IMG/VR virus record: IMGVR_UViG_3300037470_000764
Span: 1 to 58,165 of that record
Length of the DNA: 58,165 nt
Direction: 5' to 3' (one strand)
DNA from: a virus
Lineage: Duplodnaviria; Caudoviricetes
The notes under the pieces: generated by a model
What the model was told of the DNA's origin: nothing
Databases searched by the model: none
What the model saw: the letters and a program-made list of their open reading frames with translations, nothing else
Translations under genes and position numbers: made by a program
Shown here: positions 269 through 22,766 of the stretch, one piece after another
How the letters are laid out: each line of letters starts with the position of its first letter
How positions within the stretch are numbered: position 1 is the first letter of the stretch

Positions 269-321
269 GCGCTCCTGCGCTGTGCGATTCGGAAATTACC
301 ACAGGCCCGGTGAGGGCTCAA
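269..321 (-). promoter_or_regulatory. Putative late promoter with GCGCAGGAGCGC leader hairpin (probably heads the lysis operon)
   Basis: TTGAGC (321-316)-N17-TAATTT (298-293), then CCGAATCG and GCGCAGGAGCGC (280-269) on the minus strand. Confidence 0.6.
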
Positions 322-368
322 GGAACCGATATATATTTGATAAATAGAGGCTATTTAGCCGCTGCGAA

Positions 369-3300
369 TCAGTTGGCCGGCATGATCTCGCGTATCGTGG
401 CGCGTTCCCGTGCGGATTTGCCCGGTCCGCGGATATCTTTCATCCTCGAGCGCCCCAGCTTCTCACGGGTAACGTGCTGTTTCAGGGTGGCGTTGCTGAT
501 ATTGACCCGGAGATAGGCCGGTTTTTCGGCATTCCAGGCCTTGATCTCGTCGATGATTTCCTTGCGTTCCTCAGCGTCTCCCCCGGCGATCGCCATGGCG
601 AGGCGCTTGTAGTAATGCGATTGCAGCTCGCGCGCGGCAAAATCGGCGCGGGTCATCATCCAGTCCTGCTCCATGCGCCGCGCCAGGCGGGTGGACTGGA
701 ACCCGAAAGCCCTGAGGGCGACGTCGGATTCGTGCAAATCGTCGGGGTGCATGATCAGGCTCCGGTTGCGCGACCGCAGGCCTTCCGACTTCATCGCGGC
801 GGCTTTCGCCACATTTGCCCCGCCGGCGGATAGTGCAAAGCGCGAAAGCTCGGCAAGGCCCGTGCCCCAATCGCCGCCGATCATGTGATCGAGAGCCCTG
901 AGACCCGTCGCAAACGTAGAACCCGGGATACCGAGCATATCGAGGAGTTGGGAGGCATTCGCCATGCGCGAGAAACTCGGCCGCGGCGGCTCGGCCGGCA
1001 GTATCTGCCCCATGCCGACGCGTCGCGACATATCCACCCCGGACTGGCGCAGCGCACCGCGCCGGATCGACTCGGCGATCCACGGACCTTGTTCCTCGCC
1101 GAGGAGATCGACCACGGCGGCCTGGATTTCCTTTTCAAGGTCGAGGTCGTGGCGCGCCAGCGCCGCGTGTAGCAGCTCGTACCAGTCCTTGAGGTCGTCA
1201 CCGCCTGGAAGCCCGAAGATGCCGCCGGCGAGGAACAGCATCGTCATGTTCATGGCGAAGGCCTTCTTGCCCTCCGGCCCGTACATCGTCGCCATGCGGT
1301 ACTGCACCTGCAGCGCGTTCGCCATGAAAGACTTGAACTGGTTGATCACCACCCAGCCTCCCCGAAGCGCCGAGGAGCGGTTGCCTTTTCCCATCAGGAA
1401 ATGGGTTTCCCAGATAACGAAGCGCGCGAGGTCGATCGGCCGGTGCTTCCCCTGCGCGTCGGCCATGTTGCGCCAGATATTGGATGTGGCGAAGGCCTTC
1501 TCGGCCCGGGCCATCACTTTCGGATCCGCGCCGAGCTCCAGAACGGCAATCGCGGTCGAGAGCCGGTTGAAGCGCTCCGCCGAGGTGAACATCGTGCCGG
1601 CGGCTTCCATGATCCGTTGCTGCGTCTTGCCGAGACCGCGCAGGAACCTCTTCCGGCCCTGGGCGATGCCCATGGTCTCGAGTGTCACCATCGGCACCAG
1701 CGTGCCTTCGCGCATCAGTGCGTCGATGTCGGCCTGGAGACGCTTCGGCGCTTTTGTGACATCGAAATTCAGGAACTCGGCCCGGCCCTGCGGCCGGAAC
1801 ATGGCCGCGGTCAGCACCCCCGCCTTGCTCAGCACGCCGGCGGCGCGAACCGGGTTTGTCACCATCGTGAGGAAGGGCAGGGTAAAGACCGGCACCTGCG
1901 TCAGGTTGAGGGCAGCGGACGAGACGTTGCCGGCCAGATAGGCAAAGAACATCGCGCCGCGCCACTGGCCGTACTCTTCCTGCGGATTGAAGATGTAGTT
2001 TTTGTATTCCCGGGCGTATTTCCGGAGCATGGGCTTGTCGGTCGCGATGGCGCCGACGGCCTGGTCGATCGGGCCCATGGCGCGGCGTCGCGCGAGATAG
2101 CCGGAAATCCCGACGATGTAGTCGGAGATCGAGCGCGTGAAATCCTGCTCATAGCCGGGGGTGTTGCGGCTTTCGATGAAATGCGATCGGAAACCCTCCG
2201 CGGTCCATGTCGCGCGCACGGCCTGATCATAGCTGTCGATCGTCTCCTGGTCCGCGCCGCCGCGCCGCGCCATGTCGTCCAGCACCGCGAAGTCGATGTC
2301 CTGTATTGAGCTTGTGTCGACCGGCGGCCGGAACTGCGTCTTCTGGACGATGAAGCCTTCGGCGCGCGGGAACTGAGCCTCCAGCCGCTTGCGCAGCGCC
2401 GCCACCTTTTCCCGGTCGCCGATGCCCTTCTCGACCTTGCCAAACCACGCCACGCCGCCCTCGCGCGTCACGGTGATGGAATAATCCCCGTAGCGCGAGA
2501 ACGGCACATAGCCGGCCCGGCGGGCCTTTTCGATCACTTCCACCAGGTCGGCGGCGTTTTCCAGGGCGCCGCGCTCGCTTCGGCTCAGCTCCTCGTTTTC
2601 CGTTTGGGCGAAGTCACGGATGCCTTGCGCCGAGCGGGGGTCGCCGGGCTTGCCGAGCCCGGCCTCGACCAGCACCTGTTGCTTGAACATCAGCAGCGCC
2701 CGATCGAACATGGCGCGCGCCGCCAGATAGCCCTGCCTCTCCGCATCGGTGAGTGTGATGCTCTCGCCCGGCTTGAGCATCGAATATCCGTGCTTGCTGT
2801 CATTTTTGACGGTGATGGTTTCGTCGGCCGCGTAATCCGTACCTTCCAGCCGTCCGATCTCCAGCACCTTGTTGACGTTCTCGCGCTGCTTTTCCGACAG
2901 GGCCATATAGGGTTCGAGCACCGCGCCCAGCATCACCTGTCCCTCGTTGCGAAGCCGCCCGAATTCCGTTGCCCAATGGAAGACCTCGGCAAACTGGTGA
3001 TCCTTCGTGGCGATCTGGTAGGGGTGCAGAAAGGCCCGATGATAGTTCCGGTAATCGCCCGGATCGGGCAGCTTCGGGGCCTTGCGCAGGCCGGCGATCG
3101 CGGCGCGCAGGTTCTTGGGCGCGACAGTCTCCTTGTCCTTGCGCGGCCGGCGCGGCCGCCCCGGCTCGCGCGGCTCGACGATCAGGCTCTCCAGAAGGGC
3201 GGCGTCCTCTTCCTGGGCGCGCGCCTCGGCCAGTTCGGCGATCTTGCGCGTCAGGCGCCGGTGCGAATCCTTGACGGCCTTGGCGAGGTTCGACGGCGTG

Positions 3301-6300
3301 GCGCGGCCTTGCAGTGTCAGGCCCATGAACTCGGCCATCGCCTTGACCCGCGCCGCGCCGTCCTCCGCGCCCTCGATGTTGCCGGACAACGCGGCCCTGT
3401 CGTCCGGGGCGCTGTGGCGCACAAAATCCGATACCGTCGTGCGGGCCCAGGACTCGATCTCGGTCAGCAGCTCGTTCATATACGCATCGAGCGCGTCGGT
3501 GCGTTCGGCGGCATTCGGGATTGAAAATTTCTCGACGATCGCAACGTCGGCTTCATCGAAGACGACATAGTTGAAGGTGCCGTCGCCGTCGCCGCGCGAG
3601 CCGGCATCGAGATACTTCACGCCGGGAATGCCGAGCGATTTCAGGTAGAGGCTGCCGGCCTTCCGGTCCTCTCCATTTGCCAGCGCTGCGTCGAGCGAAT
3701 CCGTAGCAGGATACGCATCGTCATAGGCCATACGGTGGAGCACTTTTCCGACGATTTCGGCGCCTGTCCACTCATCAAAATCGGCGTTCAGTTGTTCCTC
3801 GTAAGTGTCGAGGGTGTCGCTGGCCTCGAGTTGCGACCGCAAGGATTGGAGGGCATCCTTCACCTTCCTGCTCTGCGCCGAAACCGACTTGTCCCAGAGC
3901 AGCCATTCATCCTCGCTCGGCGTCAGGTCAACCTTGAACAGACGTCCGGGCTTGGACAGCTGCACCCGGTCTGCAAGTGTTTCCGCGATTTCGGCCTGAA
4001 CTTCAAACTCGCTTTTTATGTCACTATTGCGGGAGTCGCGTGCGAGCTCACGCTTTTCCCAAGCGTAGTGACGAAGGAGAGCGGGGGGATCGACCGCTTT
4101 TTGGCTGTACAGTTTGAGGTTGGCATCGGTCTGAACTTCTGCGGCGACCCGCCCAAGCGCTGCCCAGCCAATGGAAGCTGCAGCGGGATGTGTGAGACCA
4201 AGGCTGGCAGCAACTTCTCTGTTGCGCGCGGCCTTCGCCGCATCGAACGGTCCACCGAATGCTTCAAACCTGATTCCATCCAGCGTCAGATGCTCCCTCC
4301 CCGCCAACATCTGACGGTAATGCTCGGCCACCTCCTTCTTGCCAGCAAAATAAAGCCCCCAGCCATAGGTCTGGGCGCCTTCACCCGAACCGATCGCCTC
4401 CGTCGTGAAGGCGTCAAAATCGTGGGGCGTGCCGTGGTAGGCGGCCGCGAGTTTTGCCGAAAGAGAGGGCACACCGACGTCCCCGCGGCGCGCGCCGACA
4501 AGGCCCCGATTGATCGCTCGAAACACATCTTCAGCGCTGCGGAACGACGCGCCGGTCAGCGCCCGGCCCAGCGCCCGGAAAAACTCGGCGATCCGTTCGA
4601 AGATGCTTCGCCCGCGGACATCGTCCTGAAATCCGTCATTGGCCCAATCGGCGAACATGTCCGCCACGGCCTCCTCAACCATCTCCTCCTCGGTGAGCCC
4701 CTGCTTTGCGTATCTCTTCCTGATGTCCTCCATCCGGGCCTTGTCGGCCCGCGCCGCCCGCGATAGCGTTTCCCATTCCTGTTTCCGGATGAGGCCCATA
4801 TCCCTGAGGGCGTGCACGATTTCGTGATCGAGGACCCAGCCGCGCGATTCGGCGTTTAGCGCTATCTCGATCAGGCCGCGGACATAGCGTCCCTTCGCAC
4901 CGGTGGCGCGCCCATCGGCCAGCGAGCGAATATCCTCGACCAGGCGCAGGCGCACGCGATCCGAGAGGTTGACCGCGCGAAGGCGGGCCGCGAGGTTCTC
5001 GATCGACATTCCATCCTTGAAGGTGTCCTGCCACTGGACTAGATTGATCCCGCCGGAAGCGCTTTTGGCTGCAGGACGTGGCGAAGCTGCCAGCTTCGCA
5101 GACCCTCCGGGACCCTCGACCCCCGGGCTTCCGGTCCCCATCCATGTCGAGAAGTCATATTGCCAGGTTCCGCCGGGATACCGGTGGATCGAAACGGCGA
5201 GGGTCATTCGGTCGCCGGCGATGTCCACAGGCGCGGCGATGACGATATGATCGAGCTGTTCGGTGCGGTTCCCCGGCTCCTGCTGGACGACCTCGCCCTG
5301 CTCGATGATGGCGCGGATCGCCGGCACGGCTTGGAGCAGGCGATGTCCCTTGCCGCTGGTCGACTTGTTCCGGCCGCCCCGGCTGAACGACACTTCGAGC
5401 CCGTCCCTGGTCGCAACGGATTGGCCGCGCAAATTATCGTCGAACCATTGCTGAGCCGCGCGCCGGAGGGACGGCATGGACTCAGGACCGGCATAGGTGA
5501 AGCCTATCTCCTCGCCGGTGAGCGTGATGACGGGTTCGCCGCCCATCGCAAACATCTCGACGCCCTGTTGGGTCTCGCGCGTTTCGATGGTGGCAAACAG
5601 CTTGTCGAAGGATTCCTTGATGCCGTCGCTGAGCATCTCCTCGGCGGTCGGATAGGCACCTCCTTCTGTGTCGATATTGACGAGATAGTCGTTTGTCGCG
5701 CCTTGGGCGTCGAGCCTGTCGACGATGTAGCGTTCGAAGGCGCGCGCCGCCTTCTCGATGATCTTGCCGAAATAGGGTTTGGAGCGGGCCGCATCGAAGG
5801 CGACGGAACGCTTCGAGAATTTGCCTTGCGCGATCGCCGCGCGCACCGCTCTCCACGCCTCGAAAACCTCCGGGCGCATCTGCTGTTCCCGCACGGCGGT
5901 GGTGCCTTGCGTGATGTAGTCGTCGATGGCCCCCTCGGCGCCTACATTCTGCCGCGCAAAATAATTGTCGGCGGCATGTAGCCACTCATGGGCAAGCGAG
6001 CCGGGGCCGGCGTTCTTGGTGAGGTTGATGACAATCTCGCCTGGTTCGAAGTGCGCCGCCGCGCGCCCTCCCTTGCCGCGCGCGCCGAAGGCGAGACCGA
6101 GCGAGCCGTTGAGCGAAATCGCCCGGCTCGGAATGCCAAGCACGAGTGAAAGGTCCATCAGCGCGTCAAAGGCCTCGTTGAGATCGGCCTGCCGCCGGCC
6201 GCCCTCGACATAATTGCCGAACTGCACCCCGCGAAATCCGAAGGCTTCGGTGAACTGCTCGGGGCTGACATCGCCTTCGCGCATGTCCTCGCCGACACGC

Positions 6301-9300
6301 ACGCGGTTTGCGGCGCGGCGCATGGTGGGGCCTCGCCGGATCCCCGCGATCTGCTCGCGTAGTTCAGCGTCGTTGAAGCTGCCCCATGCGCGGGCATCCA
6401 GGGAGGTCGTGAAGCCGGTCTTCAACCGGATGACGCCTGTGCGGCCCTTGAAGCCGAGAAAGAAGGTCTCGTCGCCCAGGTCGCGATAGACCGAGATTTT
6501 AACACCCGATGCCGATGTTTTCGGCTTCGCTGCATAGGCGCGGTAGCCCGCCGTGATCGCGTTGACGGCGCCACCCATAATGTCATCGAGCGTCGGTCCG
6601 TCAACGGAATCCATGCGGCCCTTCGGGCTGTCGACATAATACCGCTTTACCGGCTTGTCGAAGCGCTGCCCGGCAAAGAGCGAGAAGGTCCCGGAGCGGA
6701 CGCGCCAGCGCGCGGCATAGGGCAGCATCGCCGGCTCCAGCTTCGCAAGGACAGTGCCTGTGTCGATGATGAAGGTCAGGTCCGGCGAGCTCTTGCGGAT
6801 GGCCGCCGCCACCTCCGCCGGCGCGATTTCGCCGGACAGCATGTCGAGCGCGAAGCCGCGAAGCACTTTGACCTTCTCCACCCAGCGTGTGAGTTTCCAG
6901 CCCTTGCGCGGCTTCGGGGGAATTTCATCGCGCATCACCGCCACATAGGCGAGCGCCTCCATGGAGACACCTTCGCCCGCCAGCTTCACATAGTCCGGCT
7001 GCGGAAAAACCTTGCTGAGCGGCTCGGCTGCGATGTCGACATCGGCGCCGAGTGCATCGGCAAGCCGGCGCGACATGTCCTTGCGGGCGCCCTCGATCTT
7101 TTCGCCGAAGTCGGCGATTTTGGCGGTCGGGGGCGCTGCGGCTTCGGATCTGGCGGGAGGTGACTTTTTCTTTTCGGGATTGACGGGGGGTGCATCCGCT
7201 TCCCGCTTCGGGACGGCCGTCTCGTCTTTCTGGGCCTTCCGGTACTGACCCACATGAAACCCGACCGCCTGTGCGCCGCGCTCAAAGGCGTTGCGGCGCG
7301 CGCCCTTGTCGTGCCGCACGTCATAAGGAGGTGCGTCGGTCCCTTCGATTTCGGCGACACGGTTGTCGAAGCCGGCAAGAAACGCCTCCCGCTCCGCCGG
7401 TGTCAGCGGGGACCCGCTCCTGCGGCGGGAGCCATCCGCCGATGACTCGCGTTTCGATCGCAGATAGTCGGCAAGACCGTCGTCGGCGGCGGCCGTGATT
7501 TCGTCTATTTCGGCTCCGGTTTCTTCGGCTTCATCTCCCCTATCTTCCGCAGGTTCGCCGCGTGCCGCTTCAACTTCCGGCGCTGCGGTTCCTTCAGGCG
7601 TGGCTGTCTCTCGGCCCGCTTCTTCAGCGACCGCGCCAGCGCCACCCTCTTCGCCTGAGTCAAACGGGACTTGCCATTCATCGCGTACTCCCTGGTTGGC
7701 GGCGTCTGCCGCTGCATCGGCTTCGGCTTCGATCGCGGCCCGTTCCGCCGCGATAACCACGGCTTCCTCCGGGTCGAGGCCCTTGCGTATCTCCGCCGCC
7801 GCCGCTTCAAGCGTCTCCTCCTCAAGCCACAGACCAAGACGATCGGCGGCCTCGCCCGCGGATTTCAGAGCTTCGGCTTCCGACATGGTTCCGGGTGGCG
7901 CCACTTCCTCGCCGAACAGTTTGACGGCCTCGATGCCGTCCCGCGCACCGGCCGGAATCGGGCGGCCGAACAGTATGGGCGTATCCCTGGTCCACGCCTC
8001 GGGGCGGCCCTCATAGATGCGCCCGTCTGGCTGTATGTGGCCCACGACCTTGCCCGCCGCGTCCGTCACCAGCGGCGTGGGGTAGCCCTCGGCTGAAAGG
8101 TTTTCCAGGTCGGTAAAGCTGGAGCGCGCCTCGGCAGCACCCACCATTTCGGTGTAGCGGCTCAGCGCCTCTTCCATGGACGGGACTTCGATGCGCTGCG
8201 AGCCGAGCTCGACAAAGAGGCCGGCGTCCGAAGGTACCCCAAGGTCCCTTGAGGTACCTTTCAGGGCGCCGCCTGCAGGTTTTGTCGTCTCACCGTCTTT
8301 CAGCCAGGCCTTGAATTCTTCAACGGACATCGGGCGCATGTCGCCCATCCGCTCCGCGCCCCGGCCGTCGCTGAACGCGGCTTCGTAGGTCGCCAGTGCC
8401 GTGGCTTGGTCCGGAAACCCGAGCATGGCTTTGTGCTCGTCGAACGCCTTGCTCTCGGCGTCGACCTGATCAATGACAAAGACGGTTTCGGCTGCGGGTT
8501 CCGGCCCGATATAGACGTCCATCTGCTCGCCATCGGCGCCGGTCGTCCGCTTCACATAGCCGTAATCCGCCGGCATGGTGACGGACCAGGGCGCGCCATC
8601 GGGATCCGTACCGCTGCGTTCCGAGCCCACCGGGTTTTCGATGGTGATGTCGAGACCCTGTACCCGGACATGGCCCTTTTTGTAGTTGCCGGCTTCTTTC
8701 TGCGCCTCGGTCGGCTCTGCGACCTGGGCTCGCGCCGGGTCGAGGTGTTCCGTGGTTGCTGCCTCGACCGGGGCGGTGCGGGTACCATCGCCGACCGGCG
8801 CGACCGCCGCCGCGTCCGCTGCTGGGGCGGCTTCGGGGCGTTCCATCGGAAGCGCATCTTCCGGATAAGTATCTAGGAATGTGGGCTCCGGTTGCTGAGC
8901 CGCGGCGACCACTTCGGCCTGCACGGCGCGCGCGCCGTCGGCCAGCGCCTGCCCGAGCGCGCCGGACGAAAGGGGTTGCACCTCTTCGATTTCGGGAAGC
9001 GGTTGGCGCTCCCGGGGGGCAACGGCGGTGTCGGGCCGGACCTCGGTGGCAAGGTCGACGGCTTCACCGGTCTCGATGGCGGGATCGGCGGCGGTCTCAC
9101 TGGTCGGGACGGCTTCGGGAGCGAGCGCCCGGATAGCTTCCTGCAGCATGGAGGCCTCGGTGAATTCGCTGTTCTCGATGCGCGCGGCCAGTTCCTTCAC
9201 GGCCTCGGCCTGGGCGGGTGTCATGCCGCCGCGCTTCACCTCCTCGGCCGTATTGACCGCGAGTTGCAGGATGCCGCTCTGGACGGCGGCGGCGCCCGGT

Positions 9301-10481
9301 GCGCCCAGCATTTCCAGCGCGACATCGGCGACGTCGAAATCCCCCGTCGCGACGGTTTGGGAGATCATTTCCTCCGCGCCTTCGGAGAGTGTTTGAACCG
9401 TCGGGCCAGCTACCTTTTGAATTGTGAGCCCCACCGTCGATGTCGGTTTAAGCTTCATCATGCCGACGGTCAACCGATCGAGCACCGCACCAACGGCGGC
9501 GTGAGTCAGACCCTTGGTCGCGGCTTCCTTGAGCATCGCGTTGCGCACCGCAGGATCCTGCAGCCAGGCCGCAACGGCATGCGGATCGGACGGGTTGCCG
9601 CCCGCCTTGGCAATTTCCTCGACCGCGTGTTCCTGGACCCAGAGACCGAATTCCAGCGCCACCGAGCCGACAAAACCGCCGCCGACCGCGCCCACGGCGG
9701 AGCCGGGGCCGGGAGCAACGGCAGAGCCGGCGAGACCGCCCACCACCATGCCGGCGATCGGCACTGACGAGGTGCCCATGGCCTGCGCCGCGAATTCGGT
9801 GAAAGCGACGGGATCGCCGATAAATTCGCCCGCGCCGGCGACAATAGTTTTGAACTGTCCCTTGGCGGATTTCAGATATTCGCCGTCGCCCCAGGCCTCC
9901 TGATAGGGCTCGGCAACCTCGCCGATGCGCTTCTGGATGCCCTGCATGGCGGGTGACGCGCGCGGCTTACGCGCCGCGCCTTCAGCTATTTGCTCGGCCA
10001 GGCTTTCCCAGTCACCGGTAATGCCACCCTTGGCCGCCGCCGTGCCGGTCGCAAGGCTTTGGACCGTCAAGTCTACACCCTCGGCAAAACCGGTTCCAAC
10101 AGCACCACTCAGGCGCCGCCGGAGATCTACCAGGTAGGGATGCTCGCCTATCTGTCTGCCGATGCCGACGACGCCGGGGCCTTTCGCGGCCGTTTCAAGG
10201 AGCGCCCGGCCCGCTTCTCCCAAAGCGCGTCCAACGCCCGAACGCTCGCCCCGAACCTCCTCGATCGCTTGCGAGCGGAGCGGCGCGGCGGCGTCCGCCT
10301 CGGCCTGGCTGTCAAACGAGCCGTCCCCGTTCTTGTTCATGGGGTGCGCCGTGTCGATCGGCGCCTGCTCGGCATCGAGAGGTATCCCACCAAAACGGCC
10401 TCTACGAGGCACGGAGGAGCTCGCCGGTGGCTGTGCCGCCGCCGGGGCAGTGTCGAGAGGGATGCCGCCGAAACGCGCCAT
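369..10481 (-). CDS. Giant polyvalent virion/ejected protein (InPase, LPD5/LPD1/LPD3-like, metallopeptidase, ADP-ribosyltransferase-like, PLxRFG-like, LPD38-like)
   Basis: 3370 aa from ATG 10481 (AGGA upstream). Motifs: GNYKKGHV...YGYVKRTTGADGEQMDVYIGP (InPase), IADFGEKIEGARKD, FRGVQFGNYV...SLAHEWLHAAD, VLDHEIVHAL...EEAVADMF (zincin), AYHGTPHDFDAF...GEGAQTYGWGLYFA (ART-like), GYVPFSRYGDY. Confidence 0.85.
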   Translation of the reverse strand: MARFGGIPLDTAPAAAQPPASSSVPRRGRFGGIPLDAEQAPIDTAHPMNKNGDGSFDSQAEADAAAPLRSQAIEEVRGERSGVGRALGEAGRALLETAAKGPGVVGIGRQIGEHPYLVDLRRRLSGAVGTGFAEGVDLTVQSLATGTAAAKGGITGDWESLAEQIAEGAARKPRASPAMQGIQKRIGEVAEPYQEAWGDGEYLKSAKGQFKTIVAGAGEFIGDPVAFTEFAAQAMGTSSVPIAGMVVGGLAGSAVAPGPGSAVGAVGGGFVGSVALEFGLWVQEHAVEEIAKAGGNPSDPHAVAAWLQDPAVRNAMLKEAATKGLTHAAVGAVLDRLTVGMMKLKPTSTVGLTIQKVAGPTVQTLSEGAEEMISQTVATGDFDVADVALEMLGAPGAAAVQSGILQLAVNTAEEVKRGGMTPAQAEAVKELAARIENSEFTEASMLQEAIRALAPEAVPTSETAADPAIETGEAVDLATEVRPDTAVAPRERQPLPEIEEVQPLSSGALGQALADGARAVQAEVVAAAQQPEPTFLDTYPEDALPMERPEAAPAADAAAVAPVGDGTRTAPVEAATTEHLDPARAQVAEPTEAQKEAGNYKKGHVRVQGLDITIENPVGSERSGTDPDGAPWSVTMPADYGYVKRTTGADGEQMDVYIGPEPAAETVFVIDQVDAESKAFDEHKAMLGFPDQATALATYEAAFSDGRGAERMGDMRPMSVEEFKAWLKDGETTKPAGGALKGTSRDLGVPSDAGLFVELGSQRIEVPSMEEALSRYTEMVGAAEARSSFTDLENLSAEGYPTPLVTDAAGKVVGHIQPDGRIYEGRPEAWTRDTPILFGRPIPAGARDGIEAVKLFGEEVAPPGTMSEAEALKSAGEAADRLGLWLEEETLEAAAAEIRKGLDPEEAVVIAAERAAIEAEADAAADAANQGVRDEWQVPFDSGEEGGAGAVAEEAGRETATPEGTAAPEVEAARGEPAEDRGDEAEETGAEIDEITAAADDGLADYLRSKRESSADGSRRRSGSPLTPAEREAFLAGFDNRVAEIEGTDAPPYDVRHDKGARRNAFERGAQAVGFHVGQYRKAQKDETAVPKREADAPPVNPEKKKSPPARSEAAAPPTAKIADFGEKIEGARKDMSRRLADALGADVDIAAEPLSKVFPQPDYVKLAGEGVSMEALAYVAVMRDEIPPKPRKGWKLTRWVEKVKVLRGFALDMLSGEIAPAEVAAAIRKSSPDLTFIIDTGTVLAKLEPAMLPYAARWRVRSGTFSLFAGQRFDKPVKRYYVDSPKGRMDSVDGPTLDDIMGGAVNAITAGYRAYAAKPKTSASGVKISVYRDLGDETFFLGFKGRTGVIRLKTGFTTSLDARAWGSFNDAELREQIAGIRRGPTMRRAANRVRVGEDMREGDVSPEQFTEAFGFRGVQFGNYVEGGRRQADLNEAFDALMDLSLVLGIPSRAISLNGSLGLAFGARGKGGRAAAHFEPGEIVINLTKNAGPGSLAHEWLHAADNYFARQNVGAEGAIDDYITQGTTAVREQQMRPEVFEAWRAVRAAIAQGKFSKRSVAFDAARSKPYFGKIIEKAARAFERYIVDRLDAQGATNDYLVNIDTEGGAYPTAEEMLSDGIKESFDKLFATIETRETQQGVEMFAMGGEPVITLTGEEIGFTYAGPESMPSLRRAAQQWFDDNLRGQSVATRDGLEVSFSRGGRNKSTSGKGHRLLQAVPAIRAIIEQGEVVQQEPGNRTEQLDHIVIAAPVDIAGDRMTLAVSIHRYPGGTWQYDFSTWMGTGSPGVEGPGGSAKLAASPRPAAKSASGGINLVQWQDTFKDGMSIENLAARLRAVNLSDRVRLRLVEDIRSLADGRATGAKGRYVRGLIEIALNAESRGWVLDHEIVHALRDMGLIRKQEWETLSRAARADKARMEDIRKRYAKQGLTEEEMVEEAVADMFADWANDGFQDDVRGRSIFERIAEFFRALGRALTGASFRSAEDVFRAINRGLVGARRGDVGVPSLSAKLAAAYHGTPHDFDAFTTEAIGSGEGAQTYGWGLYFAGKKEVAEHYRQMLAGREHLTLDGIRFEAFGGPFDAAKAARNREVAASLGLTHPAAASIGWAALGRVAAEVQTDANLKLYSQKAVDPPALLRHYAWEKRELARDSRNSDIKSEFEVQAEIAETLADRVQLSKPGRLFKVDLTPSEDEWLLWDKSVSAQSRKVKDALQSLRSQLEASDTLDTYEEQLNADFDEWTGAEIVGKVLHRMAYDDAYPATDSLDAALANGEDRKAGSLYLKSLGIPGVKYLDAGSRGDGDGTFNYVVFDEADVAIVEKFSIPNAAERTDALDAYMNELLTEIESWARTTVSDFVRHSAPDDRAALSGNIEGAEDGAARVKAMAEFMGLTLQGRATPSNLAKAVKDSHRRLTRKIAELAEARAQEEDAALLESLIVEPREPGRPRRPRKDKETVAPKNLRAAIAGLRKAPKLPDPGDYRNYHRAFLHPYQIATKDHQFAEVFHWATEFGRLRNEGQVMLGAVLEPYMALSEKQRENVNKVLEIGRLEGTDYAADETITVKNDSKHGYSMLKPGESITLTDAERQGYLAARAMFDRALLMFKQQVLVEAGLGKPGDPRSAQGIRDFAQTENEELSRSERGALENAADLVEVIEKARRAGYVPFSRYGDYSITVTREGGVAWFGKVEKGIGDREKVAALRKRLEAQFPRAEGFIVQKTQFRPPVDTSSIQDIDFAVLDDMARRGGADQETIDSYDQAVRATWTAEGFRSHFIESRNTPGYEQDFTRSISDYIVGISGYLARRRAMGPIDQAVGAIATDKPMLRKYAREYKNYIFNPQEEYGQWRGAMFFAYLAGNVSSAALNLTQVPVFTLPFLTMVTNPVRAAGVLSKAGVLTAAMFRPQGRAEFLNFDVTKAPKRLQADIDALMREGTLVPMVTLETMGIAQGRKRFLRGLGKTQQRIMEAAGTMFTSAERFNRLSTAIAVLELGADPKVMARAEKAFATSNIWRNMADAQGKHRPIDLARFVIWETHFLMGKGNRSSALRGGWVVINQFKSFMANALQVQYRMATMYGPEGKKAFAMNMTMLFLAGGIFGLPGGDDLKDWYELLHAALARHDLDLEKEIQAAVVDLLGEEQGPWIAESIRRGALRQSGVDMSRRVGMGQILPAEPPRPSFSRMANASQLLDMLGIPGSTFATGLRALDHMIGGDWGTGLAELSRFALSAGGANVAKAAAMKSEGLRSRNRSLIMHPDDLHESDVALRAFGFQSTRLARRMEQDWMMTRADFAARELQSHYYKRLAMAIAGGDAEERKEIIDEIKAWNAEKPAYLRVNISNATLKQHVTREKLGRSRMKDIRGPGKSARERATIREIMPAN

Positions 10482-10497
10482 GAAGCCAATCCTGGGG

Positions 10498-10794
10498 TTA
10501 CTTGCGCCGTTTGGCCCTGAAATCGGAGAAACCGCCGCCAAGGCTTTCGATCATGTGGGTCTGCGGCCCGGGCCTTGCGCCACCCGGCTTGCCGCCGCCA
10601 TGCGGCTGCTGCTTCGGCCGGTTTGCCATCGCCTCGGCGAGCGCCGGCGGCATGTTGGGCCCCAGCGCCTTTGTCAGCATGTGACCCTTTTTCGCCGGCC
10701 GTTGCGGCCGCTGTGCGCCGAGCCGCTCCATCATCTGGCCGGGAGCCCCCATCACGCCGGTTGTGAACCTTTGTCCGCCCATTTTGCTTGCCAT
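10498..10794 (-). CDS. Small hypothetical protein in the ejection-protein cluster
   Basis: 98-aa ORF tightly packed between co-oriented genes, M/G/P/K-rich. Confidence 0.6.
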   Translation of the reverse strand: MASKMGGQRFTTGVMGAPGQMMERLGAQRPQRPAKKGHMLTKALGPNMPPALAEAMANRPKQQPHGGGKPGGARPGPQTHMIESLGGGFSDFRAKRRK

Positions 10795-10795
10795 G

Positions 10796-11407: not shown

Positions 11408-11410
11408 CGC

Positions 11411-12601
11411 TCAAGGCTTCCGCATCAGGGTCTGGTCGTCCGGGTCGAAGAAGATGGCGCCGGACGGTATTTTCGCATACTCCTCGTCCGTGGTCGGACG
11501 GTAGGGATTTGCTTCCGTGCCCGTATCGGCCGCCTCGACGCCGGGCGCCACGGGACGGGGCCGCGGCACGCCGTCATTGTCATCGGCGGCATCATCGGCC
11601 TCGTCTTCCGCCGCGATCAGCGTGTCGACCAGCTCGGTCGCCTCGCTAACGATTTCATCCTGGGGACGGTCGCCCGTCATCGGATTTGATTTTGTCGCCT
11701 TCACGAGGTCGATGATCATCTTCGCGCGCGCATTGGGATTGTCGCGCGCCTGACGGATCGTCCGATGCGCCTCGACCTTGTCTTTCGCGGTGGCGGTGCG
11801 GCCTTCGGACTCGGCGATGTTATTGGCCAGCCATTCAGCGGCCTTCACCTCGGCCGGCATCTGACCAACCGAGCCCTCCTTCAGCTTGAGGGTGTGTTTC
11901 AGGCTTTCAAGGGAGCGGTCATGCCCGGCCTTGATGCCCTCTTTCCGCCCGAATGTCTCGACCTCGAGATCGGCTTTGTCGCGCGCCTGTTTGGCCGCGA
12001 GCCGCGATTCGTAAGCCGCCTCCGGATTGAAAAGCTGCGTCAGGCCTTGTTCCACATTGTCGCGCGTGACGTCCCAGACAAGCTCCGCGCCGTCGCCGTC
12101 CCTCAACTTGACGCGGAACCCCGAGCCGTCCGGAAGCGCTTCGCGCCCCGCGAGGGAATAGGAATGGTCGAGATAGCCTTTGACCTTGCCTGCCTCGACC
12201 GCGTTGTCGATCGCGCCGACTAGATCGCCGGCCTGTGCTTTAAGGAGGGCGGAGCCGAACATGCGGCTGCCCTTTCGCGCGGCCTCGCTCTCGTACCAGT
12301 CGGTCCAGTCCTTCGCGCCCTTGTAGTCGCCCTGGCCGATCAGCAGGGCGGCGCGCTCCGGGCCCTTGTAGCGCACCAGAAAATCCGCGACATCGCCCGG
12401 CTTCTGTTCGCCCGACGCGACTTTCTGATCGAACTCGGCGCGGGCCGATGTGTCGAACTCGTCCAGCTCTTTCTGCTGCCCGCGCACCCGGTCGCGCTGC
12501 TCACGCTCATATTTCTTCTCGTCCATCATCACGCCGAACGAGCGGCCGCGCTGCAACCCCTCCATGAAGGCGCCGACGCCGATTCCTACCCCGAGACCCA
12601 T
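11411..12601 (-). CDS. Putative internal virion/DNA-ejection protein
   Basis: N-terminal MGLGVGIGVGAFMEG, helical body and C-terminal YAKIPSGAIFFDPD...RKP. Start overlaps the upstream stop (TGATG). Confidence 0.7.
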   Translation of the reverse strand: MGLGVGIGVGAFMEGLQRGRSFGVMMDEKKYEREQRDRVRGQQKELDEFDTSARAEFDQKVASGEQKPGDVADFLVRYKGPERAALLIGQGDYKGAKDWTDWYESEAARKGSRMFGSALLKAQAGDLVGAIDNAVEAGKVKGYLDHSYSLAGREALPDGSGFRVKLRDGDGAELVWDVTRDNVEQGLTQLFNPEAAYESRLAAKQARDKADLEVETFGRKEGIKAGHDRSLESLKHTLKLKEGSVGQMPAEVKAAEWLANNIAESEGRTATAKDKVEAHRTIRQARDNPNARAKMIIDLVKATKSNPMTGDRPQDEIVSEATELVDTLIAAEDEADDAADDNDGVPRPRPVAPGVEAADTGTEANPYRPTTDEEYAKIPSGAIFFDPDDQTLMRKP

Positions 12602-13707
12602 CAGGCGGCCTCCTTCATTTCGACGGCTTTGGCGATGCGGCTCACCTTGCGATCGAGATCCTTGAGCGCGCCCATCGTCACGCCGATCGCGTCCTGGGCC
12701 GCAATCGTCTTGCCATCACCCTTGCCGGTCGATTTCTTGAAGTCCTGGGCATAGGTGCCGATATGCCGGCCCGCGTCGGCGACGCCGGGCGCGTAATTCC
12801 ATTCCTCGACGCGCATGTCCTTGACCGCCTCGAGCGCCGCGCCTTCCTTCAGCTTTTTCTTGTCGGTCTTGATGTTCTCGTCCGAGCCCCAGATCATGCC
12901 GGCCGCCGTGCCGAGACCGCTGGCGATGCCACCGATCGCCGAGCCCTGCGCCTGGTTTTCCGCCGCCCAGGAGTTGAGCTGGCTGTTGTAAAGCTGGTTG
13001 AGGGTCGAAGCCTGACCGCCATAGCCCGCCATGGCGCCCTGATAACCCTGACCCATGACGCCGGTCGAATTGATGAACTGCTGGTTCGCCGCGCCGGCGT
13101 TGCCAGCGGCCGAGTTGCCCGCGCTCAAACCCACGCTCGCGGCCTGGGCCGACTGCGACGGCAGGCCCCGGCCGAGATTGGCGACGTCGGCGGTAAGGGC
13201 CAGGCCTTTGTCTCGAACATTGTTGCGCGCCAGGTTCGCAGCGCCCGCCGAATTGAGGGCGGTGCCGAGCTCGCCGGCACGGTCGATACCCCGATAGCGG
13301 CCCGAATCGGGGTTGATCCCGACGGCCATCATCCGTCGCTGTGCCGCCTCGCGCTCCGCGGCCGAGGCCATCTGCACGTCGCCGCGCGCCTCCGCCGCCG
13401 CCGCCGCCTGACGTTCCGGCGTGGCATAGGACGTTGCGTCCTCAATGAACTTGTCCTCGATCGGTTTGAAGACGGTTTCGTAGCGCTCACGATCGTCCCG
13501 CGACCAGCCTGCCTGCTCGCCGGCAATGCCGATCTGCTGTTCTGTGATCTGTTTGGTGAGGGCGTCGAGTTCGGCCTGGCGCGAGGTCGATACCGCGAAG
13601 GATTCCTCGGCGAATTTGAGCCACTGCTCTCCCGTTTCCGCCTGTTTCAAGGCGGCTTTGCCGATATTGGGATCGGCGGAAGGAGCGGAACCGGAGGATT
13701 TGCCCAT
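12601..13707 (-). CDS. Virion protein with C-terminal peptidase S74-like (autocleaving chaperone) domain
   Basis: Start MGKSSGSAPSADP at 13707, A/G/Q-rich body, C-terminal GSDENIKTD...WNY...HIGTYAQDF. Confidence 0.8.
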   Translation of the reverse strand: MGKSSGSAPSADPNIGKAALKQAETGEQWLKFAEESFAVSTSRQAELDALTKQITEQQIGIAGEQAGWSRDDRERYETVFKPIEDKFIEDATSYATPERQAAAAAEARGDVQMASAAEREAAQRRMMAVGINPDSGRYRGIDRAGELGTALNSAGAANLARNNVRDKGLALTADVANLGRGLPSQSAQAASVGLSAGNSAAGNAGAANQQFINSTGVMGQGYQGAMAGYGGQASTLNQLYNSQLNSWAAENQAQGSAIGGIASGLGTAAGMIWGSDENIKTDKKKLKEGAALEAVKDMRVEEWNYAPGVADAGRHIGTYAQDFKKSTGKGDGKTIAAQDAIGVTMGALKDLDRKVSRIAKAVEMKEAA

Positions 13708-13733
13708 GGCGCAACTGTCCTTTCTAGCGGACA

Positions 13734-13787
13734 GCGCTCCTGCGCCGGTCGACAGCATCGTTATAAGGTTATTCGGCCCCTTTGAAA
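13734..13787 (-). promoter_or_regulatory. Putative late promoter with GCGCAGGAGCGC leader hairpin (ejection-protein operon)
   Basis: TTTCAA (13787-13782)-N16-TATAAC (13765-13760). GCGCAGGAGCGC at 13745-13734, 26 nt before ATG 13707. Confidence 0.6.
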
Positions 13788-20778: not shown

Positions 20779-20822
20779 CCTAACCGCCGAAGCGGTCCCC
20801 CGTCGCGTCGCGAACCTGTCCC

Positions 20823-21290: not shown

Positions 21291-21322
21291 TTTCCCTTGT
21301 TAAGGGTGAGAGGGGGCCGCTA

Positions 21323-22426
21323 TCAGGCCGCGTTCGGATCCTTGGCGTAGGTGTCGAGCGCGAGGACGCCGAAGTCCTTGTCGTCGAAGCGCGCCTTCTT
21401 GACGCCGAGGATCGTGCCGCCGGCCACCAGCGGCATGTTGCCGTGATCGGTCATTTCCTCGGTCCAGGCAAAGCGCAAACCCCCCTTCGAGCCATAGGCC
21501 ACGACGCCGGCCTGACGGCCGAGGAGCAGTGCCCGCGCGGCGGGGAGATCGACGCTCGAGCCATAATCCGAGAAACGGATCACGCTCTCGTGGCTCTGGA
21601 GGACGACGTTCTTGATCATCCCCATATTGCCCTTGAAGATCGGGTTGTTGCGCCCCTCGGCGGCGGCCGCCGCTTTCTGGAAATCGACCCAGGCCGAGCT
21701 CGAAGCGGTGCGCATCGAATGTTCCTGGAACGGCGACATGACGACGACGTAATGCGCTTCGCCGTTCACCATCACGGGCAGCATGTTGGCCGTGGTCGGA
21801 TCGGTGCTGCGCATCGTGCGCGCCTTGACTTCGGCCTTTTCGATCAGGGCGACCGACATGATGTCGGACGTCGTGACGTTGGCCTTCGCCGTCGCCGTGC
21901 CGCCGTAAAGCAGATGGCCGGTGTCGGGTGCCTGGATGGCGTTGGTCGCGTGACCCGCCCAGGTGAGGCTTTCGGTGAAGTCCTCATTGATGCCGCGCGC
22001 ACCGGAGAGGTAGATGAAGATCATCTCGTCGATGAATTTTGACCAGTAGTCGGAAAGGCGGTTCTTGCCGACCACGCGCATATTGTGGACGGTGCGCTTG
22101 CGCGTCATCTTGCCGCCGACCGAAACGCCGTGGCGCATCTGGTCTATCTTCACGTCGTCGGTGAAGAAGCGGAGGTTTTCCTCCTTGCCTTCCAGCTTGT
22201 TGTCGCCATAGGTCGGCGGGTTGCGCAGCTGGACGGAGAGGTCGTAGGAGATCGTGTCGCCGGCGGCCGACTCGAGATCGGTCAGGCGCTGGATCGGCGC
22301 ATTGTCATTCGTGCCGATGAACTTGCGTTCCCAGTACGATTTCTTGACGGTGTCGATGAAGAGAGCGCCGGACCACTTCTTTGCGGCCTTGGGGTCGCCG
22401 AAAGGGATAACTGTTTGACCAGCCAT
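21323..22426 (-). CDS. Major capsid protein (N4-gp56/DUF4043 family)
   Basis: LESAAGDTISYDLSVQL, LEGKEENL, IDQMRHGV, RNNPIFKG and KKARFDDKDFGV motifs. Confidence 0.92.
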   Translation of the reverse strand: MAGQTVIPFGDPKAAKKWSGALFIDTVKKSYWERKFIGTNDNAPIQRLTDLESAAGDTISYDLSVQLRNPPTYGDNKLEGKEENLRFFTDDVKIDQMRHGVSVGGKMTRKRTVHNMRVVGKNRLSDYWSKFIDEMIFIYLSGARGINEDFTESLTWAGHATNAIQAPDTGHLLYGGTATAKANVTTSDIMSVALIEKAEVKARTMRSTDPTTANMLPVMVNGEAHYVVVMSPFQEHSMRTASSSAWVDFQKAAAAAEGRNNPIFKGNMGMIKNVVLQSHESVIRFSDYGSSVDLPAARALLLGRQAGVVAYGSKGGLRFAWTEEMTDHGNMPLVAGGTILGVKKARFDDKDFGVLALDTYAKDPNAA

Positions 22427-22459
22427 GAGCGTCACCTGTTCCAAGAGTTAGGATTGGTG

Positions 22460-22510
22460 GCGCTCCTGCGCTTCGAATCGGAATGTAGCGCAAACCGATT
22501 CGCCCGGCAA
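22460..22510 (-). promoter_or_regulatory. Capsid promoter with inverted repeat and GCGCAGGAGCGC leader hairpin
   Basis: TTGCCG (22510-22505)-N17-TACATT (22487-22482). CGAATCGG/CCGATTCG inverted repeat (22474-22502). GCGCAGGAGCGC at 22471-22460. Confidence 0.7.
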
Positions 22511-22514
22511 GCCG

Positions 22515-22766
22515 TTAAGCCGGAACGGGTGTGCCCGAGAGGCCCCAGGAGACGCGCTGGGGTGGGACGGGGTCGGGCGTGCGGGGGCCTGCGGGACGCC
22601 GGGTTTCGCGTCCGGCGGGCGGCTCGCCTGGTTTCAGGGTGCGTATCGGATAGGCCTCCGACTCGATATTGAGCTGGACAGACTGCCCCCGGCGCTCGCC
22701 GACATGAATTGTCGTCGATGCGCCGATCTGCAGTGTCTGTCCAACCTTGACGACGATACGCAGCAT
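22515..22766 (-). CDS. CsrA/RsmA-like RNA-binding translational regulator
   Basis: MLRIVVKVGQTLQIGASTTIHVGERRGQSVQLNIES follows the CsrA pattern (ML.L.RR.GE.I.IG..I.V.V....G..VR.GI.A). Confidence 0.7.
   Translation of the reverse strand: MLRIVVKVGQTLQIGASTTIHVGERRGQSVQLNIESEAYPIRTLKPGEPPAGRETRRPAGPRTPDPVPPQRVSWGLSGTPVPA

Follow-up and report, generated by a model that had tools for sequence, protein, structure and literature searches.

Can a podophage control the synthesis of its own late proteins through a CsrA-family protein that it encodes itself? This question is raised by the record IMGVR_UViG_3300037470_000764, a DNA of 58,165 nucleotides from a Bcep22-like podophage (96% complete), called the window below. 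In the window, a 12-nucleotide element recurs in the leaders of late genes, and one of these leaders adjoins a CsrA-type gene, an arrangement which suggests, at the level of sequence, that the protein may act on late protein synthesis of the phage. The gene itself is not new. Bcep22, GP4, and JC1 all carry it under the annotation 'CsrA-like regulator' (Bcep22 gp54, JC1 gp47, and GP4 gp04), at the same place in each phage, between a scaffold-like gene and the capsid gene. The available parts of published reports term the CsrA-like gene of Bcep22-like phages a moron with possible host effects (PMC9144972, PMC10269572, PMC8310193), and the accessible portions of the literature on these phages, which do not include Gill et al. 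2011, make no mention of a phage target element for the protein. Within the literature searched, we found no published description of the element in the capsid, giant-protein, tail-fibre-like, or endolysin leaders of relatives, nor of its apparent pairing with the start codon, the covariation of this pairing, or the non-fixed GGA.

The repeated element and the leaders that carry it

The exact 12-mer GCGCAGGAGCGC matches the window four times, always on the minus strand, compared with 0.09 matches expected (Table 1), and this number is reached by none of 100 dinucleotide shuffles. All four positions agree with those given in an earlier note on this DNA. When one mismatch is allowed, just two extra sites appear, both within the terminase ORF. 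Copies 1, 2, and 3 are intergenic; a −10-like hexamer precedes them by 12, 14, and 10 nt, and the ATG follows at 23, 26, and 33 nt, respectively. This placement between a hexamer and a start codon is as the earlier note described it, but a consensus sigma-70 scan calls no minus-strand promoter at any of the four sites. The sigma70-like −10 boxes that it named show hexamer resemblance only, and the transcription start just before the element is a putative one.

Table 1 Coordinates of the features discussed in the window
Feature	Position	Strand	Description
Leader 1	234-321	−	TTGAGC 321-316, 17 nt, TAATTT 298-293, GAATC 290-286, element, AGGAG 256-252 (second GGA site), ATG 245-243
Element copy 1	269-280	−	MFE −22.4 kcal/mol, z −1.86; past the giant gene, before a short ORF (35 codons) and the probable lysis region
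Leader-2 operon	369-13707	−	Tail-fibre-like/giant-protein operon
DarB-like giant protein	369-10481	−	3370 aa; last in leader-2 operon
Three ORFs between giant gene and S74 protein gene	10498-10794, 10796-11407, 11411-12601	−
Virion protein	12601-13707	−	Peptidase_S74 domain, PHROG 8003; first gene of leader-2 operon
Leader 2	13696-13765	−	TATAAC 13765-13760, element, hairpin holding RBS AAGGA (second GGA site 13722-13718), ATG 13707-13705
Element copy 2	13734-13745	−	MFE −23.2 kcal/mol, z −3.02; leader of the tail-fibre-like/giant-protein operon
Major capsid gene	21323-22426	−	Pfam Phage_capsid_3 at 3.5e-64; phrog_334
Capsid leader	22415-22487	−	TACATT 22487-22482, GATTC 22479-22475, element, inner hairpin, TTGGAAC (second GGA site) upstream of RBS AGGTGA, ATG 22426-22424
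Element copy 3	22460-22471	−	MFE −22.9 kcal/mol, z −2.85; capsid leader
CsrA-family gene	22515-22766	−	Divergent, 83 aa, Pro-rich C-terminal tail
Element copy 4	33539-33550	−	After the replication-initiator stop codon and the GGCCGCATGCGGCC hairpin
DUF5675 ORF	57183-57725	−	Other record end (within 57183-58105)
Membrane-protein-like ORF	57722-58105	−	Other record end (within 57183-58105)

Behind copy 2, where an ejection-protein operon had been claimed, an operon is found that is composed of the Peptidase_S74 virion protein, three further ORFs, and the DarB-like giant protein. Because its upstream neighbour is transcribed divergently, this unit needs a promoter of its own. Late operons are long in this phage, and the giant gene extends over ~10 kb. 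Copy 1 precedes a 35-codon ORF, followed by an ORF running off the end of the window. A lysis operon behind this copy, as proposed earlier, is plausible rather than shown within the window; the ORFs at the opposite record end are lysis-cassette candidates that leader 1 would reach if the record is circularly permuted, and they match no lysis family. Copy 4 is indeed located just past the initiator stop codon, at a distance of 25 nt, yet chance or an antisense occurrence may account for it. It lies antisense within the plus-strand ORF 33338-33604, which has a GGAGG ribosome-binding site, and no minus-strand ORF is found downstream of it.

Relatives possess their own versions of the element, with the core GCGCA-N-GA-N-GYGC. 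A version is present in every capsid leader examined, namely those of 30 IMG/VR loci, Bcep22, GP4, POI1126, PBC5, Pavtok, Parlo, SJM3, Mwe-JY07, and five genome loci; the compared leaders are homologous, and the counts are not independent events. The looser pattern GCGCAN{2,5}GYGC is too degenerate for these GC-rich genomes. In six alphaproteobacterial-type relatives, the element is also located before giant-protein, tail-fibre-like, or endolysin genes; three mutually unrelated endolysin families are represented (GH108, Muramidase, and Amidase_2). Four copies each are found in G003, Atu_ph08, and POI1126, the last with one additional variant, while PBC5 has four leader copies (three of one version and one of another) plus one at the integrase start, and Pavtok has two. 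In Bcep22, the element is confined to the capsid leader and is absent from the other late intergenic regions, an observation that speaks against the reading favoured below. Copies of the 12- to 13-mer are identical within one genome and different between genomes; in addition, an identical 13-mer is kept across alpha- and gammaproteobacterial phages with capsids ~60% identical. The element is invariably oriented like the gene that follows it, and its distance to the ATG is 19–45 nt (16–45 nt with automatic start picks). In alphaproteobacterial-type phages, it follows a −10-like hexamer by 8–15 nt, as judged by eye, and in the betaproteobacterial-type relatives L007 and L011 a strong −10 is ~38 nt away and a further hairpin intervenes. 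The 5.6-Mb genome of a Hoeflea holds four exact copies of the version found in its prophage, three of them within 30 kb of that prophage and the remaining one on the host chromosome inside coding-looking sequence. By these occurrences, the element appears to be specific to phage.

Competing folds predicted for the leader

The 12-mer had been described as a hairpin with a 4-bp stem. This local hairpin can form in 17 of 18 distinct variants, and it is weak (−1.5 to −5.1 kcal/mol). It is not the favoured fold, as the earlier note had taken it to be: in the MFE fold of all three window leaders, the element is paired to the region of the start codon, and copy 3 forms the 5' strand of a predicted helix closing over the capsid start codon, with 14 start-region nucleotides paired with the element region. 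The MFE folds of 39 distinct leaders were compared: 35 have at least two of the three AUG nucleotides paired, and in 37 at least six start-region nucleotides pair with the element region. The mean z-score against dinucleotide shuffles is −3.16, with 33 of the 39 leaders below −2, and the long-range helix over the start codon has predicted energies of −17 to −32 kcal/mol. Compared with 1000 random windows of the same locus, the element/start-region duplex ranks within the best 5% in 23 of the 39 leaders. The element shows no preferential pairing to the start region in the capsid leaders of Pavtok, Parlo, SJM3, and Mwe-JY07.

Both predicted structures show covariation. For the long-range helix, 86.2% of 87 cells are paired in nine divergent capsid leaders, compared with 77.0 ± 2.2% after shuffling (0 of 500 shuffles reach this value), and five of ten pairs change on both sides (reached in 1 of 500 shuffles); slid controls are paired to 21–43%. 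Column-wise pair counts over 23 leaders show no covariation in the CAUG:CAUG core because its columns are invariant, and the outer codon-2 pairs are mostly unpaired in these counts, which register shifts in the 23-leader alignment made unusable for the inner helix. For the local hairpin, the flanking pair occurs as six pair types in the 23 leaders, with a covariation score of 0.197 against 0.116 in shuffles (2 of 500 reach it). The earlier expectation of a covarying stem around a fixed GGA loop is reversed, since the stem GCGC/GYGC is almost invariant and the loop varies. GGA is found in 10 of the 18 distinct variants, and the other eight have UGA or AGA. The absence of GGA, the hallmark of CsrA sites, from these eight speaks against the CsrA-like protein as reader.

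The long-range helix and the small hairpin use the same bases. In the predicted folds, the start codon is hidden in a stem, and a candidate activator site is located directly 5' of it and competes with it, as in the Com/mom system of phage Mu. The window leaders also have the layout of a CsrA target, taken here as a short hairpin whose loop contains GGA, accompanied 10–60 nt away by another GGA at the RBS: in each of them, an AGGA loop in a GCGC/GCGC stem is followed at ~20 nt by a second GGA at or near the RBS. These properties are in line with the earlier suggestion that the element behaves as an RNA-level signal common to late transcription units.

The CsrA-like protein encoded beside the capsid leader

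The CsrA-like gene is located directly upstream of the capsid leader, in agreement with the earlier note. As a single sequence, the window protein matches the Pfam CsrA model (PF02599) with 19 bits (E 1.4e-3), below the cut-off of 27, and the alignment places residues 1-35 on positions 1-35 of the 53 in the model. The family of 17 phage sequences gives a clearer picture. Its profile matches RsmE (2jpp) at E 3.9e-11, E. coli CsrA (1y00) at E 8.7e-9, and further CsrA structures, among them those of Y. enterocolitica and E. coli, with values between 4e-9 and 1e-5. Moreover, 16 of the 17 members match PF02599 at E ≤ 0.01, with a best value of 9.7e-13. These sequence comparisons establish the 83-residue ORF as a true but divergent CsrA homologue.

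Known CsrA proteins are interlocked homodimers with a five-stranded beta fold. The AF2 monomer model of the window protein is composed of five strands (2-6, 11-14, 18-21, 30-34, and 41-44) without a predicted C-terminal helix, at a mean pLDDT of only 60.2. The predicted complex of two CsrA-like cores scores 0.32, against a mark of 0.42. CsrA contacts RNA through L2 and L4 in strand 1 and R44 in strand 5 (E. coli numbering), of which R44 is important. L2 is invariant in alignment A2 of the phage family and nearly so in alignment A1, and the R44 column holds R in the family consensus (P-I-x-R). The window protein reads P-I-R-T, with T aligned to R44 and R one position earlier; the T at this position speaks against a role as reader.

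In 25 of the 30 IMG/VR loci, a CsrA-like ORF precedes the capsid gene by at most 2.5 kb, and in Atu_ph08, PBC5, and G004 the CsrA-like gene adjoins a motif-bearing leader despite rearrangement. In the L007-L010 lineage, no CsrA-like ORF is found nearby. The missing CsrA-like ORF of G006, a 24-kb fragment, is uninformative either way, as the portal and scaffold genes are missing as well. A search of viral contigs for related loci with the CsrA-like protein alone confirmed none. The co-occurrence of gene and motif anticipated in the earlier note thus holds as adjacency in most relatives and fails in one case, a Chitinimonas prophage in a 4.7-Mb genome: its scaffold and capsid genes are adjacent, no CsrA-family match is found in the genome, and its capsid leader keeps a GCGC-AGAU-GCGC variant hairpin together with the start-codon pairing. 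Retention of the hairpin without the gene, an outcome that the earlier note had named as refuting and that was seen once, speaks against the reader role. The further expectation of hosts without chromosomal CsrA is borne out for at least one relative, as the Hoeflea host genome has no PF02599 match and so lacks canonical CsrA.

How the leader may be read

We propose, with a probability of about one half, that the leader has two states and that its reader is the CsrA-like protein of the phage, whose binding would more probably open up translation than prevent it. The 12-mer would be the version in this phage of a conserved 5' leader element on late mRNAs of Bcep22-like podophages, and each late unit (capsid; tail-fibre-like and DarB-like giant protein; lysis region) seems to begin a few bases before it. 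In one state, the element would form the small hairpin, in which GCGC and GYGC enclose a loop A-N-GA or AGGA. In the other, much more stable state, it would pair with the start codon and the stretch from the RBS to the start codon, shutting the initiation region, so that the two states are predicted to be mutually exclusive. The most likely reader is the protein of the CsrA family, whose gene adjoins a leader with the motif. We consider it slightly likelier that the protein captures the emerging 5' element, keeps the start codon open, and licenses late translation than that it represses; in the classical CsrA mode, a dimer would bridge the hairpin and the GGA at the RBS and repress, as on B. 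subtilis hag. The earlier interpretation, in which the phage protein binds the element to time or ration capsid, ejection, and lysis expression, is in part supported as a whole.

The strongest competitor of this proposal, which we hold to be possible but clearly the less probable, is a real two-state leader that the CsrA-like protein does not read. The helix would then act alone, protecting the 5' end, setting low or delayed translation, or giving a short co-transcriptional folding window, or a host factor (RNase, helicase, or ribosome) would open or cut it, and the CsrA-like protein would act on host mRNAs as a moron. The leader of the Chitinimonas prophage, the eight variants lacking GGA, and the single occurrence of the element in Bcep22 fit such a helix, as does the host-directed role assigned to the gene in the available parts of the published reports (PMC9144972, PMC10269572, PMC8310193). 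Against it, identity of the element within a genome and difference between genomes argue for a sequence-specific, phage-encoded partner, and the 13-mer shared by alpha- and gammaproteobacterial phages, as well as the adjacency of gene and leader that survives rearrangement in Atu_ph08, PBC5, and G004, point the same way. Moreover, something would have to open so stable a helix when it covers the start codon of the virion protein made in greatest amount.

A role in transcription, with the element as a DNA operator of a late activator or repressor, a qut-like site of antiterminator loading, or a put-like RNA, would account for the constant orientation, for the short spacing to the −10-like hexamer in alphaproteobacterial-type phages, and for long operons with a 10-kb gene. 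We regard it as improbable, as a qut- or put-type signal would keep a fixed promoter distance and no relation to the start region: the distance instead changes from ~8–15 to ~38 nt, with a hairpin intervening in L007 and L011, and the element stays complementary to the start region, with covariation, while its distance to the ATG varies. The spacing of the two complementary halves is also too variable for a dimeric DNA binder. Least probable of all, and in our view very unlikely, are functionless copies left by a duplicated promoter cassette or arising as chance GC-rich repeats. Copy 4 with no gene downstream, the Hoeflea chromosomal copy in coding-looking sequence, and the similarity among window copies, which reaches merely a few bases beyond the 12-mer, would suit this origin; the shuffles, the retention in non-coding DNA across phage genera, the covariation of both structures, and the presence of the element before non-homologous endolysins speak against it.

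Four further candidates were rejected. An RNase III cut would remove the start codon and leave the sequence conservation unexplained; a GCGC methylation site does not fit the second arm GTGC of relatives; GcrA/GANTC control is at odds with GANTC lying beside only two of the three window leaders and being absent from most relatives; and an N4-type hairpin promoter was discarded because the giant protein is DarB-like and not an RNA polymerase.

The proposed system resembles CsrA/RsmA/RsmE in its homologous protein and in its candidate target, a short 5'-leader hairpin with an A(N)GGA-like loop and, in the window, the second GGA at or near the RBS ~20 nt away. The version of one relative (L027), CAUGGAGUG, resembles the CsrA SELEX consensus. 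It differs in the divergence of the phage protein (19 bits), its long non-helical tail, the loops without GGA, and candidate targets that are late genes of the phage itself instead of a host regulon. In phage Mu, the gene of the small Com protein lies just upstream of its target; Com attaches to a hairpin located 5' of the stem that hides the start and thereby opens mom translation, as in the activation model proposed here; Com is, however, a zinc-finger protein with a single target, whereas a CsrA-family protein would here have several candidate targets. Translation activation by CsrA has a precedent on ymdA. In the CsrA-FliW-Hag system of B. subtilis, CsrA acts at a 5' hairpin site and an RBS site to control translation of a major structural subunit, and this control is tied to assembly; the leader of a major structural subunit likewise has hairpin and RBS candidate sites here, but no FliW-like partner was identified. 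T4 RegA represses several mRNAs of its own phage at their start regions, and RNA-phage coat protein binds the replicase-operator hairpin that holds the start codon. Both belong to families unrelated to CsrA, and RegA acts on early genes, whereas the candidate targets here are late.

Phage CsrA genes have been catalogued and are so far described, in the available parts of the reports, as morons that may alter the host, and a cis element on the phage's own mRNAs would give such a gene a concrete, testable job. If the proposal holds, a widespread podophage group would possess a translational late switch, and a CsrA family member would be at work in hosts without a Csr system. It could also explain how capsid, giant protein, and lysis stay silent in temperate or plasmid-prophage phages despite promoter-like sequences. 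The leader, which is compact, covarying, and different in each phage, may serve as an orthogonal translational switch. Even without the protein link, the start-locking leader would be an RNA element that is conserved and matches no Rfam family at the gathering threshold in the window, where the Rfam search finds tRNA only; no decoy sRNA was found.

A bolder form of the proposal, which we put forward tentatively and regard as doubtful, makes the CsrA paralogue a dedicated licensing factor of late translation in Bcep22-like phages of alpha-, beta-, and gammaproteobacteria. Every late message would be born with its start codon locked by the conserved 5' element, and the CsrA-like protein, made together with the portal and scaffold proteins, would release capsid, injection-protein, and lysis messages in order, possibly sensing capsid assembly through its C-terminal motif, much as the FliW-CsrA pair does with flagellin. 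This motif, G(I/L)(T/S)G, is conserved in the CsrA-like family, and one peptide of the CsrA-like protein is reported from JC1 virions in the available part of the JC1 report (PMC9144972); both are mere hints of a protein partner.

The late-leader element and the phage that carries it

The 58,165-bp IMG/VR virus record has 63% G+C and an estimated completeness of 96%. It encodes a P22-like portal (E 1.9e-181) and a Phage_capsid_3/phrog_334 capsid. The nearest GenBank records by DNA are Bcep22-like podophages of Burkholderia and Ralstonia, and the nearest by protein are Agrobacterium phage Atu_ph08, Sinorhizobium phage PBC5 and Ochrobactrum phage POI1126. On the minus strand, terminase, portal and a 328-aa scaffold-like protein (phrog_8246) are followed by an 83-aa ORF, the capsid gene and other virion genes. 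Beyond a divergent junction lie a tail-fibre-like virion protein (PHROG 8003, Peptidase_S74), three ORFs and a DarB-like giant protein, whose homologous start in POI1126 carries Hydrolase_2 and Peptidase_M15 domains. The two record ends may cut a single gene of a circularly permuted genome.

Positions of the element copies and of other features in the window and in two relatives
Feature	Sequence	Position (strand)	Remark
Element copy 1	window	269-280 (-)	leader 1, 35-codon ORF/probable lysis region
Element copy 2	window	13734-13745 (-)	leader 2, tail-fibre-like/giant-protein operon
Element copy 3	window	22460-22471 (-)	leader 3, capsid gene
Element copy 4	window	33539-33550 (-)
CsrA-like gene	window	22515-22766 (-)	directly upstream of capsid leader
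GANTC site GAATC	window	290-286 (-)	leader 1
GANTC site GATTC	window	22479-22475 (-)	leader 3
ORF antisense to copy 4	window	33338-33604 (+)	88 aa, GGAGG ribosome-binding site
DarB-like giant protein	window	369-10481 (-)	3370 aa; endolysin-like segment at residues about 556-737 (phrog_938, phrog_10089)
Left-end ORF	window	1-137 (-)	runs off the record
Right-end ORF	window	58124-58165 (-)	hydrophobic C-terminus enters
27-mer (GAAGGTAACAAAACGTAGAC...), first two of three copies	window	37408-37434, 37842-37868 (+)	434 bp apart, between divergent gene blocks, operator-site-like arrangement
27-mer, third copy	window	52957-52983 (+)	ends exactly at start of tRNA gene
tRNA gene	window	52983-53054
60-nt repeat	window	40910-41134 (+)	three in tandem, 94-96% identity; probably within a plus-strand gene
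Element copy	PBC5 (L053)	961-972	annotated integrase start; orf1 ATG at 965
Capsid leader	Chitinimonas sp. contig (L079)	1113-1194	hairpin GCGC-AGAU-GCGC

The earlier note had pointed to an exact 12-mer, GCGCAGGAGCGC, and its four copies, all on the minus strand, are borne out: 0.09 copies are expected, and none of 100 shuffles reaches four. For copies 1, 2 and 3, the hexamers TAATTT, TATAAC and TACATT precede the element by 12, 14 and 10 nt, and ATG codons follow it after 23, 26 and 33 nt. The hexamers, which had been read as sigma70-like -10 boxes, are present, but a scan for the sigma-70 consensus finds no minus-strand promoter at the four sites, so promoters here are only suggested. Leader 2 must own one, because the gene upstream is divergently transcribed. 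GANTC sites separate the hexamer from the element in leaders 1 and 3 and are absent from leader 2; a GcrA-like regulator is reported for Atu_ph08 (PMC6630229).

Downstream of copy 1 come a 35-codon ORF and a second ORF that leaves the window; the opposite end of the record holds a multi-pass membrane-like ORF and a DUF5675 ORF. The proposed lysis operon is therefore plausible but, within the window itself, only putative. Copy 4 follows the replication-initiator stop codon and a palindromic hairpin, with no minus-strand gene downstream, and lies antisense within a plus-strand ORF with a good ribosome-binding site. This ORF, for which a family match was sought and none found, converges on the initiator gene and shares 29 nt with the end of that gene.

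A version of the element is present in every relative's capsid leader that was read: GCGCAGGATGTGC in Bcep22, GCGCATGACGTGC in POI1126, Pavtok and Mwe-JY07, GCGCATGAGTGC in Atu_ph08 and PBC5, GCGCAAGACGTGC in Parlo and SJM3, and GCGCAGGAGTGC, GCGCATGGAGTGC, GGGCATGGAAGTCC and TCGCAGGAGTGA in further relatives. The 39 leaders analysed, which share descent and in which motif boundaries and several start codons were picked by eye, contain 18 distinct strings. The predicted fixed GGA loop does not hold, as GGA occurs in only 10 of these 18 and UGA or AGA in the remainder. In alphaproteobacterial-type phages, the phage's own version is repeated ahead of further late units. Four copies occur in the fragment G003 and in Atu_ph08, four plus a one-base variant in POI1126, two each in Pavtok and the rearranged genome G004, and three in the Hoeflea poritis prophage. 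PBC5 has four leader copies (three of one version, one of another) and one over the integrase start codon, where the ATG lies inside GCGCATGAGTGC and a bound protein would block translation of the integrase. The 5.6-Mb Hoeflea genome contains the exact 13-mer four times: three copies are no more than 30 kb from the prophage, and one is in coding-looking host DNA.

The genes downstream encode capsid, tail-fibre-like protein, giant protein and endolysins. The endolysins come from three unrelated families, namely GH108 (POI1126, Atu_ph08), N-acetylmuramidase (Pavtok) and Amidase_2 (PBC5); therefore the element tracks a functional gene class rather than a single inherited gene. In Bcep22 it is limited to the capsid leader. 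The late intergenic stretches of Bcep22 share -10-like hexamers (TATAAT, TAGAAT, TACAAT) flanked by GGTGCG/GCACC-type repeats, with TAGAATCG[GA]ACC recurring, which may represent a separate late-promoter signature.

Folding and covariation of the leaders

The 4-bp hairpin that the earlier note had drawn around a GGA loop is formable in 17/18 variants. It is weak (-1.5 to -5.1 kcal/mol), and the three window leaders fold instead as a helix joining the element to the start-codon region (-22 to -23 kcal/mol). Among the 39 distinct leaders, 35 have at least two of the three AUG bases paired, and 37 have six or more bases of the -12 to +5 region paired with the element region. The mean z against dinucleotide shuffles is -3.16, with 33 leaders below -2. 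The duplex between element and own start region ranks in the best 5% of 1000 random same-locus windows for 23/39 leaders and in the best 1% for 11/39; the window leaders score 0.026, 0.038 and 0.073. By this measure the Pavtok, Parlo, SJM3 and Mwe-JY07 capsid leaders are unremarkable, and for Pavtok and SJM3 the element's 3' part has its partner instead in a segment that precedes the ribosome-binding site.

The long-range helix is the consensus structure of a MAFFT/RNAalifold alignment of nine divergent capsid leaders. Alignment A4 supplied these nine from its 14 members; L007 and L011 were left out because they share the helix of L013, and L020, L024 and Hoeflea because they aligned poorly. 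The helix pairs 86.2% of 87 cells, compared with 77.0 +/- 2.2 in shuffled alignments (0/500 reach it). Both-side changes occur in 5/10 pairs (1/500 shuffles), and slid controls give 21-43% pairing. These counts somewhat favour the helix, as it was taken from the tested alignment itself. The alignment of 23 alpha-type leaders gives the local hairpin as its column-consistent consensus. Next to the invariant core, the flanking pair shows six pair types and is paired in 15/23 leaders, and the covariation score is 0.197, compared with 0.116 +/- 0.027 (2/500 shuffles reach it). Because the tool warns of related sequences, this evidence is moderate. The two structures are mutually exclusive, because they use the same bases.

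The CsrA-like protein

As a single sequence, the 83-aa ORF matches Pfam CsrA weakly (19 bits, under the cut-off of 27). A 17-sequence family profile matches solved RsmE and CsrA structures (E 3.9e-11 to about 1e-5), and PF02599 is matched by 16/17 members; the CsrA homology claimed for this gene is therefore established. In 25/30 IMG/VR relatives, as well as in GenBank phages, iterative search over fetched loci places a homologue ahead of the capsid gene, at a distance of 2.5 kb or less. The phage group is divergent, with the consensus ML..DLK.GE.V.IGD....TV..KSG....L...AD.S.PI.R. and variable tails. In most members of the protein alignment A1 the C-terminal tail has a G(I/L)(T/S)G motif (WGLSG, RGITGE, TGLTGE, MGLSGE; window residues about 73-78), which canonical CsrA lacks and which may be a site for a protein partner. 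A low-confidence model of the window protein has no visible C-terminal helix.

The gene itself is already known, being labelled "CsrA-like regulator" in Bcep22, BcepIL02, DC1, GP4, Pavtok, Parlo and SJM3. Passages in three papers treat it as a moron with possible effects on the host and record one peptide of the protein in JC1 virions (PMC9144972, PMC10269572, PMC8310193). Chromosomal csrA is absent from Burkholderia and S. meliloti according to PMC7366521. A PF02599 profile search gives no match in the Hoeflea host genome; the same search finds CsrA in the controls E. coli, B. subtilis and T. maritima, and both canonical and phage-type copies in a Methylophilaceae MAG.

A candidate RNA switch and its possible partner

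The element lies about 8-15 nt from the promoter-like hexamer in alpha-type phages and about 38 nt away, with a hairpin between, in L007 and L011. Its spacing to the ATG is variable as well (16-45 nt by automatic picks, 19-45 nt after several were corrected), and the complementarity to the start region is kept and covaries nonetheless. These features argue for an element acting as RNA, on translation initiation, rather than as a DNA site. Moreover, element copies are identical within a genome and differ between genomes, an entire 13-mer is conserved between phages of different proteobacterial classes, and a CsrA homologue adjoins a motif-bearing leader even in the rearranged genomes Atu_ph08, PBC5 and G004. 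Together these observations point to a phage-encoded, sequence-specific partner. The CsrA family binds this kind of site.

Because the most abundant virion protein has its start codon covered by a helix of about -20 kcal/mol, which something must open, activation is slightly favoured over the alternative of classical two-site repression by the same protein. In the activation model, the CsrA-like protein would hold the 5' element, so that the start region would stay open and translation would be activated. The putative mechanism, which the phage would apply to late genes of its own, joins CsrA-type leader control to a switch that sequesters the start codon. Full-text literature searches returned neither a target element nor a self-directed role for the phage gene, within the text they cover; Gill et al. 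2011 or supplementary files may hold an earlier mention.

Four points speak against the protein link: the unconserved GGA, a T in the window protein at the column aligned with CsrA R44, the single copy in Bcep22 and, most seriously, a Chitinimonas prophage. The earlier note expected motif and gene to be conserved together and named a motif conserved in relatives without the gene as refuting its idea. The Chitinimonas prophage, whose capsid is 54% identical, retains the hairpin in its capsid leader, with flanks complementary to the start region. Between the end of its 323-aa scaffold-like gene and the capsid ATG lie 82 nt, so that scaffold and capsid are adjacent, and neither the phage profile nor PF02599 finds a CsrA-family match in the 4.7-Mb genome, a single case from a fragmented assembly. 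This prophage offers a natural test case for the protein link. The L007-L010 lineage is uninformative on gene absence, because the fragment is also without portal and scaffold genes; a closely related leader in a Methylophilaceae MAG has a CsrA-like gene directly upstream.
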